Shown: positions 154 through 19,094 of the stretch, in pieces
How the letters are laid out: each line of letters starts with the position of its first letter
How positions within the stretch are numbered: the stretch's first letter is position 1
Assembly: GCA_964611355.1 (NCBI GenBank)
Contig: CAZSYD010000007.1
Span: 59,383-79,382, forward strand
Origin: an uncultured Ignavibacteriales bacterium
GTDB lineage: Bacteria > Zixibacteria > MSB-5A5 > GN15 > JAAZOE01
Direction of reading: 5' to 3'
DNA: 20,000 nucleotides
Program-made: the position numbers and the translations under genes
The notes under the pieces: generated by a model
The model's input: only the letters and a program-made list of their open reading frames with translations
Databases searched by the model: none
Told to the model about the DNA's origin: nothing

Positions 154-1332
154 CTATTTTAACCCGAACAGGCGTTTGATGAATGATCGTTTCCCGGGCG
201 GCTTTTCAGCTCTCAGGGGCGGTTCCATTCGCGGCGCACCCGTCGGGGTTACATTCCTTTCCGGTTGACTATCTCCGCCAAATGCAGCGGCCGCTTCAGA
301 ATTGCGGGCAATACCGACGCTACCGGAATCCAAGGGCCCACCTATACGAGCGGAGTCATGATGTCTTCTCCGATTCATCCGCTGTTCATCCTCCATCGTA
401 TTTCCAGGGAAGGGACGAGACACCGGTTCAACCCTGACCGAGGGTTGAACATCCGGTTGAGCGGGCGCCGGTTGCCGGGGTTCCGGATTCCGGACAACTT
501 CCTGTCTTACCGGAGTCAATTCCGGCTGAGGCACCGGTTGGCGCGCAACGGGGGCGACCGTCTCCTGACGAATATGCTCCGGACGTGCGGGCTCCTGATA
601 TACCGGTTCACTAATTTCCTTATAGGCCGCCTGGACAGGCAGAGGCAGAGGCTGAGATATTGGTCGAGGGGGCGGCGAGACCGCTGCAGGTTGCGGCTGC
701 GTCGGTTGCGGCGCTTGTCCGGCGGCAGTTGCAGTGGACGGAACGGTACCGCCCGATTTGGCCTTTTCCAGAACCAGCTTCAGAATACATTTCAAAGTAT
801 CAAATACGCCGAACCCTTCGGTGGCCGAAGCCCTAAATTCCATCCAGCCGTGCGGATTAATCGTCGGGTTCATCTGCTCCGGGGTAAGAATTCCGGGCAG
901 ATCTTGTTTGTTATATTGAATAACGACCGGTATATCTTCCAATTTATATCCGTACTCAGTCAGATTTTCCTTGAGATTATTAAACGATTCGATGTTTTCA
1001 TCCATTTTGTCGGGTTGAGAATCGGCCACAAAAACCAGACCGTCAACCCCTCGCAGAACCAGTTTGCGGGTAGCATTATAATACACCTGCCCGGGGACGG
1101 TATAGAGCTGAAACTTGGCGGCAAAGCCGTTTATAGTACCGATATTTATCGGTAAAAAATCGAAGTAGAGGGTCCGATCGGCATCGGTGGCAAGCGAAAT
1201 CAGTTTCCCCTTGGTATCCGGGGGAACCTTTTTATGGACATACTGCAGGTTGGTCGTCTTGCCCGATAAACCCGGCCCATAGTAGACAATCTTGCAACTG
1301 ACCTCTCTGGAGGCGTAATTTATTGAAACCAT
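154..1332 (-). CDS. mglA: MglA-family small Ras-like GTPase with long Pro/Gln-rich C-terminal extension and terminal amphipathic helix
   Basis: N-terminus INYASREVSCKIVYYGPGLSGKTTNL (G1), DRTLYFDFLP (G2 with intrinsic Arg), YTVPGQVYYNATRKLVLRGVDGLVFVADSQ (G3), NKQD (G4), ASATEG (G5). Residues ~193-380 are low-complexity; the protein ends KRSFIKRLFGLK. Confidence 0.95.
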   Translation of the reverse strand: MVSINYASREVSCKIVYYGPGLSGKTTNLQYVHKKVPPDTKGKLISLATDADRTLYFDFLPINIGTINGFAAKFQLYTVPGQVYYNATRKLVLRGVDGLVFVADSQPDKMDENIESFNNLKENLTEYGYKLEDIPVVIQYNKQDLPGILTPEQMNPTINPHGWMEFRASATEGFGVFDTLKCILKLVLEKAKSGGTVPSTATAAGQAPQPTQPQPAAVSPPPRPISQPLPLPVQAAYKEISEPVYQEPARPEHIRQETVAPVARQPVPQPELTPVRQEVVRNPEPRQPAPAQPDVQPSVRVEPVSRPFPGNTMEDEQRMNRRRHHDSARIGGPLDSGSVGIARNSEAAAAFGGDSQPERNVTPTGAPRMEPPLRAEKPPGKRSFIKRLFGLK

Positions 1333-2702: not shown

Positions 2703-3611
2703 TCAGGCGGAAAGGCGCGGCAAGAGTGACGTCAACTTCATCTTCAAAGAACCAAGGTTGACAGTTTCCGAGCATACCACGGCCAGAAGCCGGCCGCAGG
2801 CGCCCGCCATATACGTCAATGAACCATCCGTTTCGATCATCATCGACTGCAAATCGCCAAATCCGCTTTCGCGCATCTGGATGGTACTGTACTTGGCCGT
2901 TTCGGCCGCCAGGGCGGCTACCAGATCGGTTTCGCCCGGAATATTCCATTCCGCCTCGATTACCAGACCGTCAGCATTAACCAATAGAACTCCTTCAACT
3001 CCCGGCGTTCCGACCAGCGACCGCAGCATCTGCTTAAAATCAATATCCGGTTGTGGCGGCGCTTCCGCAGGTGCAGGGGGCGGCGGCGGGGAGAATTGCG
3101 GAGCCTTTTGTACGGCCACAGGCGAAGTCGCGGAATATGCCGCGGAGGCGGGTTCCGGTGTGACGGCGGCCCGACCGCTATGATCGACGTTGAGCGGAAT
3201 CTTTCTGGCAATCTCAAGAAGCTTTTTTATCTGATCATTTTCGGGGTCTGCCCGGTGCAGTTTCTCAAGTAATCGGCAGGCCTTATTGAACTCGCCTTTA
3301 TATATATGGATTTCCGACAGGAGCAGTTCGGCGGCCCGGGTAGTCCCATCCAGTTCGATCGCCTTCTCAACCTCGGCCTCCGCCCAATCGTATAGCCCCT
3401 TATCCATGTTAATTTTGGCCATAACCATATGGGCGGAACCGTAGTTCGTATGTATTTTAAGACCATTCTGACAGATACGAAAGGCTTTATCCAATTCCCC
3501 CTTTTTGCGGTGCGCATCAGCCAGGGCGGCAAAAATTTGCGAACCCGGATTCTGATCCAGGATTTTATTGCACTTGGCAATTCTATCATCTATGTCTGAC
3601 CGGTCAATCAT
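2703..3611 (-). CDS. TPR-repeat protein fused to a C-terminal Roadblock/LC7 domain
   Basis: About three TPR-like repeats (FAALADAHRKKGELDKAFRICQNGL; AHMVMAKINMDKGLYDWAEAEVEKAIELD; AELLLSEIHIYKGEFNKACRLLEKL), a poly-Pro linker, then PGVEGVLLVNADGLVIEA...VAALAA...VNLGSLKMKL. Confidence 0.88.
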   Translation of the reverse strand: MIDRSDIDDRIAKCNKILDQNPGSQIFAALADAHRKKGELDKAFRICQNGLKIHTNYGSAHMVMAKINMDKGLYDWAEAEVEKAIELDGTTRAAELLLSEIHIYKGEFNKACRLLEKLHRADPENDQIKKLLEIARKIPLNVDHSGRAAVTPEPASAAYSATSPVAVQKAPQFSPPPPPAPAEAPPQPDIDFKQMLRSLVGTPGVEGVLLVNADGLVIEAEWNIPGETDLVAALAAETAKYSTIQMRESGFGDLQSMMIETDGSLTYMAGACGRLLAVVCSETVNLGSLKMKLTSLLPRLSA

Positions 3612-3704: not shown

Positions 3705-4067
3705 TTATCCCAAAACCTTGCGGGTTTGGAATAATCCTATAAACCAAAGCGTTACCGTGGCCAGATACATTATTCCCGCTACGTCAAAAGTAATGGTAAA
3801 AAAGCCCAGTTTTTCGGCAAGAACAAATACCTGACCCGCCGCCAGGGTAATAAACGATACGACGAACAACTGCCAGCCTCGGGCCAGAGCCCCGCCCCTG
3901 ACCAGTCCAAGCAACTTAATCGCGACGCCAAGACAGGCTGCCGCGCCGATCAGGATGATTAGATTCAGCATCACCGGTACCTGGGCCAGGCTGGAAAAAT
4001 CAGCGGCTGCGGCGCGATTGGACGACAGGAAAACGATCGCCGCCGCGGTTATCAAAAGTTTACGCAT
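3705..4067 (-). CDS. Small membrane protein (signal peptide plus ~3 TM helices), unknown function
   Basis: Signal-peptide-like N-terminus ending AAAA|D and three hydrophobic segments. Start overlaps the upstream stop (TAATG at 4067). Confidence 0.8.
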   Translation of the reverse strand: MRKLLITAAAIVFLSSNRAAAADFSSLAQVPVMLNLIILIGAAACLGVAIKLLGLVRGGALARGWQLFVVSFITLAAGQVFVLAEKLGFFTITFDVAGIMYLATVTLWFIGLFQTRKVLG

Positions 4068-5278
4068 TATGACGCACCTGTAAGCATTTTAACGGTTCGT
4101 TCGGCTTTCCGGATCGAGTCATAAAGGTTTTCGTCCAGCCGATATTTCTTAACCAGTTCACGACGCAACGCCAATGGCTCGGAGATTTCCTTTTTCACGT
4201 GGCCGATGGCCTCATGGAACAGTTCCTGTCCCAGACGGTCAAAAATATATTCGAGCTGCTGGTGAAGCATATCTTCGAGCACGGTAAGCAGCCTATGCAA
4301 GCGCACCGATTCCGGAATCTTTCGCGCCTCGGTCAGGAACTTTTCGAATGACGGCCCCGAGTCCGACCTTATATCCCAACCGGGGAAAAAGACCAATACC
4401 CCGTGACGGAAACCCGACATAAACCGAGAATAGTCGGGATTGGACACCCCTACCATACTTTCTACTACTTTGCGAATCCTCAGAAAGCAGGCGTTGTAAA
4501 GCCTGAAAATAATGCCCAAGATGATTTCTTCTTCATCCTCTCCGGGGCCGATATCCTCGCCCGAAGCCCGCCCAGCGCCTTCCACCAGGCCGCTAACAAC
4601 CAGCTTATACAAGGCCCGGCAACTGGGGAATTCGCCGATTGGCGAAGCCTCGATAATATCGGGCAGGGTCCGTTCACCGTTTATTATAGAAAGGATTTTG
4701 AATTCATCCAGCGACAGCGTCACTTGATCGGAATCGGTTTTGGGCAAGGGCTTAACCCGCAACAGGACATCATTAGGCGGAATCACCTTCTGAATTTCCA
4801 TCCATTCATCTATGCGCCGTGTCCCCTCCATGATAATATTCATGGTCGGGAGATTAACCAGGTAGGCGGCGTCCTTTGGGGCGTCCCCTTCGGCAAAAGA
4901 AAATTCCCCCTCGGCCCAGCTAAAAAGATTATAAACGATTTCCTCAATCTGCATTCGCAGACATTCGGCCACTTCGTCCCGATCAAACAGCTCCATGTCG
5001 ATCAGTGTTGCACCAAGCGCGCGACCTGTCTGCTTATGGAGAGTGATCGCTCTTTCCAAATCTTTTTTATTGATCTTGCCGCGTTTAAGCAGGAGGCTTC
5101 CGAGAAGATCCTCACTGGTGTTCACGGACTTGGCATAGACAATATTCCCCTCCCGAAACGCAATCTCCTTCTTACGCGAACCGCTTTCAATCGCCAGTAT
5201 GCCGGTTTTCTTGCCGCTCGAAAGCAGTTGCAATACATCCGGGAATGAAACTGTTTTTAGATTCCCCGTAAGACCCAT
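4067..5278 (-). CDS. DUF4388 (PatA_N-like) domain protein with inserted MshEN-like tandem motif and probable winged-helix region
   Basis: MGLTGNLKTVSFPDVLQLLSSGKKTGILAI...IAFREGNIVYA and LFSWAEGEFSF...IIMEGTRRIDEW are typical DUF4388 motifs. LSLDEFKILSIINGERTLPDII...LYKLVVSGLVE resembles a winged helix. Confidence 0.85.
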   Translation of the reverse strand: MGLTGNLKTVSFPDVLQLLSSGKKTGILAIESGSRKKEIAFREGNIVYAKSVNTSEDLLGSLLLKRGKINKKDLERAITLHKQTGRALGATLIDMELFDRDEVAECLRMQIEEIVYNLFSWAEGEFSFAEGDAPKDAAYLVNLPTMNIIMEGTRRIDEWMEIQKVIPPNDVLLRVKPLPKTDSDQVTLSLDEFKILSIINGERTLPDIIEASPIGEFPSCRALYKLVVSGLVEGAGRASGEDIGPGEDEEEIILGIIFRLYNACFLRIRKVVESMVGVSNPDYSRFMSGFRHGVLVFFPGWDIRSDSGPSFEKFLTEARKIPESVRLHRLLTVLEDMLHQQLEYIFDRLGQELFHEAIGHVKKEISEPLALRRELVKKYRLDENLYDSIRKAERTVKMLTGAS

Positions 5279-17576: not shown

Positions 17577-19094
17577 CTATCCCGGATTTCCTTCCCCTTC
17601 CGTAGCTGTCTCTTTTTTGAGCTTTTCCATCATGGCTTCCGGATCGAGCGGTTTCTTTTTCTCATCTGTAGATGATTCAGCCGGCGAATTCATACTTGTT
17701 GGCAGTACCACTCGGAAATCGGAACCGGCGCCGTCCCCTTCATCGCCCTGCAGAAAAGCCATCAATGTTTTCGGCTCGATTATTTCCAGAATAAATTGCG
17801 CCGCCTGGTGCAGGATAAGGTCAAGATCGGTTATCCTACCATATATATCCCGATGCTTGCGGGCATATTCCGTTTTCTTGTCCGTTATTCTGATAGTCAT
17901 ACACAACAGCCCATCATTGGCGATAATCTCACCGCTTATCCGAGCGGGATACCGGCCGAATAGTCGCTTAACCGGTAGTCCTATAGAATGAAGTGAGAAC
18001 CCGGAACCTGCCGCTATCATTTCCGGAAGAGACCCCGGTTTTTCCAGAACCGGGAACCGGGTCTTCCTGAAATTGGACTTCCCGCCATCGGCTATCATTT
18101 GCACCTGATCGAGTAATCTGTCGGTAAGCACTTCCGGAGAATACCCCAATTGCTGAAATTCAACCGGCACGCTGATGGGGGAAATAATAACAGCATTCCT
18201 CATTACCTCTCCTGCCAAAAGAACCAGAGAGAAAATGATGATGAAAATAACGACGGCGTTTAGTAATACCGCTCGTGTTTTGGCGATTAGTTGGAAAATC
18301 CCGCTCAAATGGCCGCCGCTTTTTGGAGGTTGTTTGGAAGCAGGCGTCTTTTTTGCCGGGGCGCTATCCATTTCACGCAATGACGTGTCGCGTTCCCGAA
18401 TTTCACGCACAGCCCCGGGCGGACTGCCATAAGGAGTATTTTTCTTCTTTACTTTAACAGCGTCCGACAGCATGGCAACCGTATCTTCCGATAATATCTT
18501 CAAATCCGCTTCGCAGTTGTAACATTTAACCGATTGGCCGACCGTGCGCCTGGTTTCAATCGGTGAATCGCACTGCGGACATTGAAAACTCAAAAACGTA
18601 TCTTCCGATTTGAATCCTTTAATCGGGGACCTGTCCGTCCCGGCGCCTCCAGAATGTTTCATAATCAACTGTCTCGGCCTGTCAACTTCTTCGGTTTCTT
18701 TTTCCCGCGGCTCTTCAGTAGATACCAGGGCTACCGCTTCTTCGGACAATATTTTCAGCGCGGCATTACAGTTTTCGCAGCGGATGAATTCGCCGACCCC
18801 GTAACGCGTCGCCAGCGGCGACCGGCACCTGGGGCAGACCAATCTTAAAAGCGAATCGGTTGGCCATGAAATATCGTCATTGCTTCCGGCAATCTTCGAG
18901 CTGTCCAATTCATATACTTCCGATGTATCGAATTCAGATCCTTCTTCCGCAGCGGCCGCGCCACCCGATACAACCGCCGCAATATCTTCGGAAAGGATTT
19001 TAAGATACGCATTACAGTTGTCGCAATTGATAAACTCTCCGACCGTCAGCTTAGTCCTGATCGGCCGGCCGCATTTCGGACAATCAAATTTCAA
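17577..19094 (-). CDS. Single-pass membrane protein with three tandem LysW-like zinc ribbons and an extracytoplasmic domain
   Basis: Three CxxC-x15-CxxC repeats, one TM (AVLLNAVVIFIIIFSLVLLAG), then VIISPISVP...GYSPEVL...ISGEI. TTG start with GGGAG SD. Confidence 0.8.
   Translation of the reverse strand: MKFDCPKCGRPIRTKLTVGEFINCDNCNAYLKILSEDIAAVVSGGAAAAEEGSEFDTSEVYELDSSKIAGSNDDISWPTDSLLRLVCPRCRSPLATRYGVGEFIRCENCNAALKILSEEAVALVSTEEPREKETEEVDRPRQLIMKHSGGAGTDRSPIKGFKSEDTFLSFQCPQCDSPIETRRTVGQSVKCYNCEADLKILSEDTVAMLSDAVKVKKKNTPYGSPPGAVREIRERDTSLREMDSAPAKKTPASKQPPKSGGHLSGIFQLIAKTRAVLLNAVVIFIIIFSLVLLAGEVMRNAVIISPISVPVEFQQLGYSPEVLTDRLLDQVQMIADGGKSNFRKTRFPVLEKPGSLPEMIAAGSGFSLHSIGLPVKRLFGRYPARISGEIIANDGLLCMTIRITDKKTEYARKHRDIYGRITDLDLILHQAAQFILEIIEPKTLMAFLQGDEGDGAGSDFRVVLPTSMNSPAESSTDEKKKPLDPEAMMEKLKKETATEGEGNPG
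18465..19094 (-). repeat. Three intragenic ~43-aa Zn-ribbon repeats (aa 1-43, 83-125, 168-210)
   Basis: CPKC..VGEFINCDNCNAYLKILSED, CPRC..VGEFIRCENCNAALKILSEE and CPQC..VGQSVKCYNCEADLKILSED. Confidence 0.9.

Follow-up and report, generated by a model that had tools for sequence, protein, structure and literature searches.

Does a bacterial MglA hold itself to the membrane by its own C-terminus? The question is raised by a gene at the beginning of the 20,000-nucleotide stretch analyzed here (hereafter the window; contig CAZSYD010000007.1, positions 59,383 to 79,382, from an uncultured bacterium of the Zixibacteria lineage). On its minus strand, an open reading frame (ORF) at 154–1332, with an ATG start and a TAG stop at 154–156, encodes an MglA-type GTPase of 392 residues (the gene is called mglA-long below), the sole MglA match in the source genome (2.57 Mb, 110 contigs, 96% complete). 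The Ras-superfamily GTPases of prokaryotes are seen as soluble switches, small and made of a single domain; this one continues for 197 residues past its G domain and ends in a peptide closely resembling the membrane-targeting sequence of MinD. The architecture, conservation, distribution and gene context of the long MglA are directly observed, and we consider it likely, at a probability of roughly 0.7, that the terminal peptide binds the cytoplasmic face of the inner membrane.

The G domain (aa 1–195, positions 748–1332, minus strand) is that of a conventional MglA. Residues 3–195 align gap-free and end to end with residues 3–195 of Myxococcus xanthus MglA (5ymx_A, expectation value E = 1.9e-77), and Thermus thermophilus MglA (3t12_A) matches the domain at E = 1.7e-72, while Rab and Arf proteins, the next PDB matches in rank, score no better than E = 6e-06. 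In Pfam, the only family to pass its cut-off is Arf (E = 1.9e-06); Gtr1_RagA and Ras fall short of theirs, and no NCBIfam family matches the GTPase above its cut-off. The P-loop GPGLSGKTT, R53-T54 and T78-V79-P80-G81-Q82 are invariant across a 63-sequence alignment. The hallmarks given for group-1 MglA in the available text of a published survey are an intrinsic arginine finger by the conserved Thr of G2 and a TVPGQ G3 motif replacing DxxGQ (PMC4316618). Full-length G-domain homology, TVPGQ, the arginine finger at R53-T54 and a coupled mglB are all found here, and the only departure is in size, with 392 residues against the 150–240 that the survey used as a working cut-off. By every sequence feature tested, the domain is thus a group-1 MglA that fails on size alone, and it is predicted to be catalytically canonical and is paired with a canonical MglB. 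An antisense open frame at 265–1155 on the plus strand (296 aa) overlaps the region coding for the tail; it is most likely a by-product of composition, since the in-frame conservation sits on the minus strand.

The tail differs from the G domain in composition. Over aa 196–379 it is rich in Pro (20%), Ala (11%), Arg (10%), Val (9%), Gln (9%) and Glu (8%), its hydrophobic share is 18% vs. 36% in the G domain, and its charge is balanced (20 Lys + Arg vs. 20 Asp + Glu). An intact MglA G domain followed by a Pro/Gln/Ala/Arg-rich tail, as described in the initial annotation of this DNA, is therefore borne out by the ORF, the PDB alignment and the composition, and the length it gives for canonical MglA (about 195 aa) agrees with the 195–203 aa of the PDB chains. 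Four stretches of the tail, all on the minus strand, can be told apart before the terminus. A variable Pro/Ala/Gln-rich linker (aa 196–304, positions 421–747) shows low column identity and is modelled as coil; the motif R306-P-F-P-G310 (RP[FY]PG, positions 403–417) is invariant in both alignments; a predicted helix, acidic then basic, follows it (aa 313–327, positions 352–396); and P367-R-M-E-P-P-L373 (positions 214–234; consensus P-x-M-A-P-S-L) is a conserved motif, seen in the homologues and in an alignment of the tail module. The terminal peptide GKRSFIKRLFGLK (aa 380–392, positions 157–195) is predicted to bind membrane from its conservation and its likeness to MinD, and is the third conserved motif of the tail. 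Its last twelve residues, KRSFIKRLFGLK, are encoded by bases 157–192, just where the annotation had placed the terminus. The net charge is +4 across the last 11 residues, and the last 20 contain seven Lys/Arg and one Glu. No cysteine occurs in aa 196–392, and hence no CaaX, CC or CxC prenylation signal.

Structure prediction was consistent with a mostly extended tail. A full-length AlphaFold2 model built on the 63-sequence alignment (mean predicted local distance difference test score, pLDDT, 62.8; predicted template modeling score, pTM, 0.46) serves as a rough guide only, as even the P-loop and the switch regions came out with low confidence; in it the tail is coil save for the helix at 313–327 and a short one at 384–388/389 (pLDDT about 70–83 for both). 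When the tail module (aa 296–392) was modelled alone on a 39-sequence alignment, the same two helices were predicted (module residues 18–31 and 89–94, pLDDT 73–83), again without a globular fold (pTM 0.24). The helix at 313–326 holds a pLDDT of 73–79 in this model lacking the G domain, and its confidence in the full-length model is therefore no sign of docking onto that domain. The long flexible tether that had been proposed is upheld in so far as the tail is a predicted non-globular coil, but the tail is not featureless, as it carries two further invariant motifs at constrained spacing.

That spacing emerges from the homologues. The best 120 of at least 8000 candidates from a word-indexed search (E ≤ 0.001) were retained, of which one (P0057, 284 aa, ending inside the linker and apparently truncated) was set aside, leaving 119 homologues of 328–421 aa, the window's protein included. 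The C-terminus reads F-[FLIW]-[KR]-[KR]-L-F-G-x-x in 118 of them, the sole exception being SLFKRLFGLR, and the family consensus is KKRGFFKRLFG[IL]K. RP[FY]PG is present in the tail of all 119, and P-x-M-x-P lies inside the last 35 residues in 116. Between the G domain and RP[FY]PG, the linker spans anything from 33 to 151 aa, whereas RP[FY]PG itself always lies 68–100 aa from the C-terminus. Column identity follows the same division, at 0.9–1.0 in the G domain and the three tail islands and 0.1–0.4, with many gaps, elsewhere. F384, L388 and F389 are invariant or nearly so, with L388, F389 and G390 invariant in the 63-sequence alignment; in the tail-module alignment (39 sequences), P72 and M74 of P-x-M-x-P are invariant and P76 is conserved in at least 90%. 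The prediction that orthologues would keep a terminal F-x-x-R-L-F while the linker varies has therefore held. Judged from these alignments, the tail consists of a hypervariable spacer and then, at the C-terminus, a module of about 80 residues in which the landmarks are fixed, and RP[FY]PG and P-x-M-x-P, with their constrained spacing, are tail motifs newly reported here.

When 1.84 billion cluster representatives were searched by phmmer for the 97-aa tail module, no sign of it was seen on other kinds of protein, although a low-complexity query of this sort has low power; the four matches (90–243 aa) were all aligned at their C-termini, with one starting within an MglA G domain and the rest looking like fragments. 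RP[FY]PG has seven matches in the 1.46 million open-frame residues of the source genome, mglA-long included, none of the others in its gene cluster and with no pattern seen among them. The terminal motif, searched as a strict pattern on the other open frames of at least 60 aa in that genome, was found on none, the one match being mglA-long itself. With the motif also kept in frame by 118 of 119 homologues, the feature goes far beyond chance. Many relatives outside the window's subfamily carry a further semi-conserved element, [KR][KR]-I-[ST]-x-x-x-F-x-P, 8–15 residues past RP[FY]PG (e.g., RRDRRITVSDFQP), at columns of about 60–80 of the tail-module alignment.

The resemblance to MinD is as close as had been claimed. 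Translation of E. coli K-12 minD (NC_000913) gives ...EEEKKGFLKRLFGG, and the terminus KKGFLKRLFGG given in the initial annotation is correct; the family consensus agrees with it at nearly every position. The MglA peptide is the more basic of the two: the 22 ends with an [RK]LFG core (L010–L023 and L025–L028) carry a net charge of +5 to +10 across their last 20 residues. No MinD scored above the TIGR01968 cut-off in any of 21 genomes (the source genome and 20 relatives), in which weaker matches of the ParA/MinD superfamily were seen, and the best MinD-profile score in the source genome was 53 bits vs. the cut-off of 212.9; the peptide is therefore no recent copy of a resident minD. Descent from MinD is not demonstrable for a peptide of 11 residues.

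Long MglA is the rule throughout the phylum. In a sample of 201 genomes from 19 families and 108 genera, 196 had an MglA match, and the open frames among the matches listed were nearly all 313–483 aa, with no internal stops; two fell below this range, one of 238 aa and one of 191 aa that lies at a contig end. A back-translated F-x-K-R-L-F-G pattern was found in 113 of the 201 genomes, concentrated in the window's order (families f1, 9 of 11 genomes; f2, 63 of 73; f4, 16 of 21; f3, 1 of 3) and near background in families outside it, while control matches to the reversed pattern were scattered over roughly one genome in five. When 30 pattern loci were fetched, 27 proved to be the 3′ end of an MglA gene. 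At L091 (G015:C26), HFIKRLFGRGPKSDI lies close to the C-terminus of a 398-aa open frame that lacks the P-loop motif of MglA, and a MinD-like peptide may also occur on another protein in the phylum. MglA from 14 genomes of 12 other families of the class is long in every case (324–482 aa), and all 14 end in a polybasic run, then residues rich in Phe, Trp or Leu, then more basic residues, although the sequences themselves differ (e.g., ...KKKKFFLFRWFSRDND, ...KKSGLFGWLKGKKQ and ...GGFFLWRWLSKLFK). Outside the window's order, as far as these ends indicate, the terminal sequence drifts and the chemistry stays. NCBI labels and genome grouping disagree for two loci: L026 (labelled Ignavibacteria) and L033 (Terriglobales) have G domains identical over the first 192 residues to L130 and L133, respectively, both of which are placed in the window's own class.

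A wider comparison covered the 80 best loci, taking one genome per species, with end classes defined after the sequences had been seen. A long MglA with a basic and aromatic end is present at 28 loci, and at 4 (L060, L063 and L088 from Planctomycetota, and L084) a long MglA of 356–400 aa ends in a hydrophobic, transmembrane-like stretch of at least 19 residues (Kyte–Doolittle value 1.9–3.0). Window-type ends (L010–L022) reach a 19-residue Kyte–Doolittle maximum below 0.6, outside the transmembrane-like class. Three further loci are long but cut by a contig end, and 31 have a short MglA (from Gemmatimonadota, Krumholzibacteriia and other groups), which is itself cut at one locus. The basic and aromatic class thus makes up 28 of the 46 complete long tails, about sixteen-fold over a baseline of 3.7% among the 2185 open frames of at least 200 aa in the source genome. 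The Planctomycetota end would be another device for the same membrane attachment. Nine MglA proteins of Fibrobacter (L064, L071, L074, L075, L081, L083, L085, L087 and L089; 313–331 aa) have a different conserved end, acidic then basic, of the form ...DD(D/E)EI(E/V)LRPY.PKK.., and L053 and L067, from the same clade as the transmembrane-ended proteins, have long tails without a hydrophobic stretch.

The phylogeny of the G domain (maximum likelihood, LG+G4, 95 rows with none dropped, unrooted, with support from the Shimodaira–Hasegawa-like approximate likelihood ratio test, SH-aLRT, only) places all 39 Zixibacteria-type rows, each with an amphipathic-type end, in one starred clade, and the short forms in two starred clades. 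The amphipathic-type ends of Chitinivibrionia/Fibrobacterota, the transmembrane-type ends of Planctomycetota and the Fibrobacter ends fall in separate clades, and amphipathic-type and transmembrane-type ends together occupy at least three separate clades.

The genes around mglA-long form a co-directional cluster on the minus strand, in the order PATAN, a 120-aa ORF, TPR-Roadblock, membrane-Roadblock, Roadblock, mglA-long, mglB and pilB. At its head is a PATAN (DUF4388) protein (4067–5278; Pfam DUF4388, E = 1.5e-35), followed by the 120-aa ORF (3705–4067), identified as an open frame, which shows no BLASTP similarity to its Roadblock neighbor (E = 1.5), and by a TPR and Roadblock fusion (2703–3611; Pfam TPR families, and Robl_LC7 at E = 7.8e-11). 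The next gene (1677–2681) encodes a predicted membrane-integral Roadblock protein of 334 aa, with hydrophobic segments at aa 4–34, 68–101 and 108–126 and a Roadblock-like C-terminal domain at aa 190–321; its assignment rests on hydropathy and on BLASTP similarity (E = 1e-14) to the protein that occupies the equivalent position in L029, which Pfam recognizes as a Roadblock protein. A small Roadblock/LC7 protein (1343–1738; Pfam Robl_LC7, E = 2.9e-12) lies directly upstream of mglA. Downstream, 16 nt past the mglA stop, mglB (162 aa, with its start at positions 1–137) begins with a GTG at 137–135, preceded by an AGGAGG Shine–Dalgarno sequence, and runs off the window; its product matches M. xanthus MglB (6izw_B) at E = 7.6e-41 over residues 6–161 and is a full-length orthologue. 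A gene for a PilB-type ATPase (T2SSE and MshEN domains) comes after mglB, and pilT and pilC follow pilB in relatives. The cluster order recurs in relatives, as checked with Pfam in L020 and L029 and matched by ORF sizes in L011, L018, L021 and L026, and parts of it are found in a Fibrobacteria locus (L035) and a Planctomycetota locus (L088). PATAN genes have been noted near some group-1 MglA genes in the available text of the survey (PMC4316618), and PATAN regulators have been linked to the type IV pilus motor, according to the title of a preprint (10.1101/2021.06.11.447907). Elsewhere in the window, positions 17577–19094 (minus strand) encode a 505-aa protein with several weak zinc-ribbon matches and no other family.

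How might such a protein work? We favor membrane attachment, in which the terminal peptide would form a short amphipathic helix lying against the inner membrane from the cytoplasmic side, with the preceding basic residues assisting, and MglA would be a peripheral membrane protein held by a leash of some 185 residues. In its favor we count the likeness to MinD kept in 118 of 119 homologues, the basic and aromatic chemistry retained outside the order, the hydrophobic ends of the Planctomycetota clade, the spread of anchor-type ends over separate clades of the G-domain tree, the short terminal helix predicted in both models and the lack of any MinD above the cut-off in the 21 genomes. Tethered in this way, it would work beside the type IV pilus motor (pilB, pilT, pilC) and the membrane-integral Roadblock protein, whose presence in the cluster we also count in favor of this proposal. 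Because one MinD-type peptide binds weakly, the attachment is probably reversible and would require anionic lipid as well as the avidity that a complex could provide. The phrase "anchors itself", as used in the initial annotation, is probably best read as reversible binding dependent on charge or avidity, and the annotation's interpretation as a whole is, by the sequence evidence, partly supported.

Several points weigh against membrane attachment. The E. coli MinD peptide, in one copy, is reported in the accessible part of PMC8155659 to bind membrane too weakly to be significant or to keep a monomer there, avidity being gained by ATP-driven dimerization, and MglA is known as a monomer, as stated in that of PMC4316618. 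A helical-wheel analysis, one of the checks proposed in the initial annotation, came out weak: the hydrophobic moment of the window's end, 0.49, is equalled by 23% of shuffles of the same residues, and 32 diverse ends gave a mean z of only +0.51, with 24 above and 8 below the shuffle mean. The E. coli MinD end, at a moment of 0.55 and z = +0.8, fares similarly, such that the MglA peptide is as amphipathic as the proven MinD peptide but amphipathicity by itself proves nothing for peptides this short. Since it is non-significant, the hydrophobic moment is not used as support here, and the putative signal lies in the polybasic and aromatic composition and in the conservation rather than in a marked moment. 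Within the order, KKRGFFKRLFG is conserved more strictly than lipid binding by itself would require, and a protein partner could also be the reason. Among the 80 loci, the remaining 14 are long with other ends showing no evident anchor, including the nine from Fibrobacter (DDEIELRPY.PKK) and two from Planctomycetota. The transmembrane-like ends, at 4 of 46, are not enriched vs. their baseline of 7.6%, and all four fall in one clade. Finally, the basic and aromatic criterion was itself set post hoc.

The main alternative is that the flexible linker carries at its end a peptide for docking onto protein, in the manner of the conserved C-terminal peptide of FtsZ. Instead of lipid, its partner would be a product of the cluster, such as PilB, the PATAN protein, the TPR protein or one of the Roadblock proteins. 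The tight conservation in the window's order (118 of 119 ends, with L388, F389 and G390 invariant), the two further invariant short motifs in the tail, which themselves look like docking sites, the several candidate partners encoded in the cluster and the non-significant amphipathicity all agree with it. However, in the other families of the class the peptide sequence changes freely while its basic and aromatic character is kept (14 of 14), which would be unusual for specific docking because the neighboring genes stay the same. In addition, a Planctomycetota clade has a hydrophobic, transmembrane-like helix at the same place, and the sequence is nearly that of a MinD peptide reported to bind lipid. 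Drifting sequence with kept chemistry, together with the transmembrane-ended relatives, thus fits a lipid anchor better than a docking peptide, and we regard docking alone as unlikely. A tail that serves mainly as a disordered spacer or a condensate-forming region, whose basic end binds some other polyanion such as nucleic acid or polyphosphate, appears less likely still. Its low-complexity Pro/Ala/Gln/Arg/Glu-rich composition and balanced charge would suit such a role, as would the two models lacking a globular fold, but plain polyanion binding would not need F384, L388 and F389 to be (nearly) invariant, and the transmembrane-ended relatives point to the membrane.

A more trivial origin of the tail, and one that the initial annotation had named as fatal to its proposal, would be an artefact, i.e., a normal 195-aa mglA extended by loss of its stop codon, by a frameshift or by chimeric assembly. 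Apart from the shortness of canonical MglA and the overlapping antisense ORF, no support for it was found. An equally long frame that keeps the terminal motif in frame is found in 118 further homologues, which come from separate assemblies, internal stops are absent among the phylum matches listed, and mglB follows 16 nt downstream with its own Shine–Dalgarno sequence. Given the conservation across 119 homologues and 196 of 201 phylum genomes, the artefact reading is refuted, and its residual probability is negligible.

Beyond membrane attachment of the peptide, a broader proposal can be made, which we hold tentatively and regard as doubtful in its full form. In Zixibacteria-like bacteria, MglA may run as a membrane-bound, two-dimensional reaction–diffusion switch, docked with its partners into a platform that resembles Ragulator and sits at the pilus base. 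A weak, polybasic MinD-type anchor would give reversible binding set by avidity or nucleotide state, RP[FY]PG and P-x-M-x-P would dock the tail on the membrane-Roadblock, TPR-Roadblock, PATAN or PilB protein, and Fibrobacterota, Chitinivibrionia and Planctomycetota would use other anchors. The assignment of these two motifs as docking sites for cluster partners is more speculative than membrane binding of the terminal peptide. If the proposal is true, these bacteria would have invented independently the Ras/Rho design of a hypervariable region, a basic patch and a hydrophobic anchor.

Membrane attachment alters the making of patterns by switches, as in the MinD and Cdc42 systems, and, if the anchor works, the control of type IV pilus polarity would happen on the membrane in these bacteria. 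Anchoring to the membrane through a C-terminal extension is seen as something that eukaryotes added; here nearly a whole phylum carries its sole MglA in extended form, and other phyla appear to reach a membrane-type end by different means. The terminal peptide, being short and transplantable, is also a potential ready tool. The survey of Wuichet and Sogaard-Andersen (2014) dropped MglA sequences longer than 240 aa (39 of 488 in the MglA subclade) and could therefore not see the long forms, and its available text contains no mention of a membrane-binding tail (PMC4316618). A search of full-text literature, most subscription journals being outside its scope, turned up no description of an MglA that carries a membrane anchor or an extended C-terminal tail. 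Besides the tail motifs, other results new here are the negative control for amphipathicity, the baseline against which the classes of C-terminus were judged, the tree of the G domain and the search for MinD in 21 genomes.

Among known systems, the nearest relatives are the MglA proteins of M. xanthus and T. thermophilus (PDB 5ymx, 6izw, 6h17 and 3t12), with which the present protein shares the full G domain, R53 and TVPGQ, an adjacent orthologue of MglB, their GTPase-activating protein, and a link to type IV pili, here through the neighboring pilB. Those proteins stop at the end of the G domain, whereas this one has 197 residues more, and mglB lies downstream of mglA with four further Roadblock-type genes upstream, in contrast to their arrangement.

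The terminal peptide resembles that of E. coli MinD in its position at the extreme C-terminus, in its similar length and in an almost identical core, K-[KR]-G-F-[FL]-K-R-L-F-G, and the two have equal hydrophobic moments, with a short terminal helix predicted for the MglA end. In MinD, affinity is gained through ATP-driven dimerization, as described in the accessible part of PMC8155659, and no equivalent is known for MglA. The MglA carrier is a Ras-like GTPase rather than a ParA/MinD ATPase, its peptide hangs on a linker of about 185 residues whereas MinD's is attached directly to the fold, and extra basic residues precede the peptide where MinD has EEE.

FtsZ combines a disordered, variable linker with a conserved C-terminal peptide, which binds FtsA and ZipA rather than lipid. 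By analogy, the long MglA may likewise be a globular GTPase linked to the membrane through a variable disordered linker and a short conserved terminal peptide, but its fold is unrelated and the FtsZ peptide binds anchoring proteins. Ragulator is a Roadblock-domain scaffold that holds small GTPases on a membrane. The present cluster may be compared with Ragulator–Rag (also mentioned in the available text of PMC10933270), as several Roadblock proteins are encoded around a small GTPase and one component is predicted to be in or on the membrane. It differs in that the GTPase has its own predicted anchor, and in that the putative partners are bacterial and are encoded next to pilus motor genes.

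A further analogy of layout is with Ras, Rho and Rab, in which a G domain is followed by a variable, flexible C-terminal region, a basic patch and a hydrophobic end that inserts into the membrane. The long MglA would share this layout, with a predicted membrane-inserting end. The C-terminal extension of Rab is argued, in the available text of PMC10933270, to have arisen during eukaryogenesis. Unlike the eukaryotic proteins, the long MglA has no cysteine or prenylation signal, its predicted anchor is a peptide rather than a lipid, its linker is about ten times longer, and its origin would be independent.

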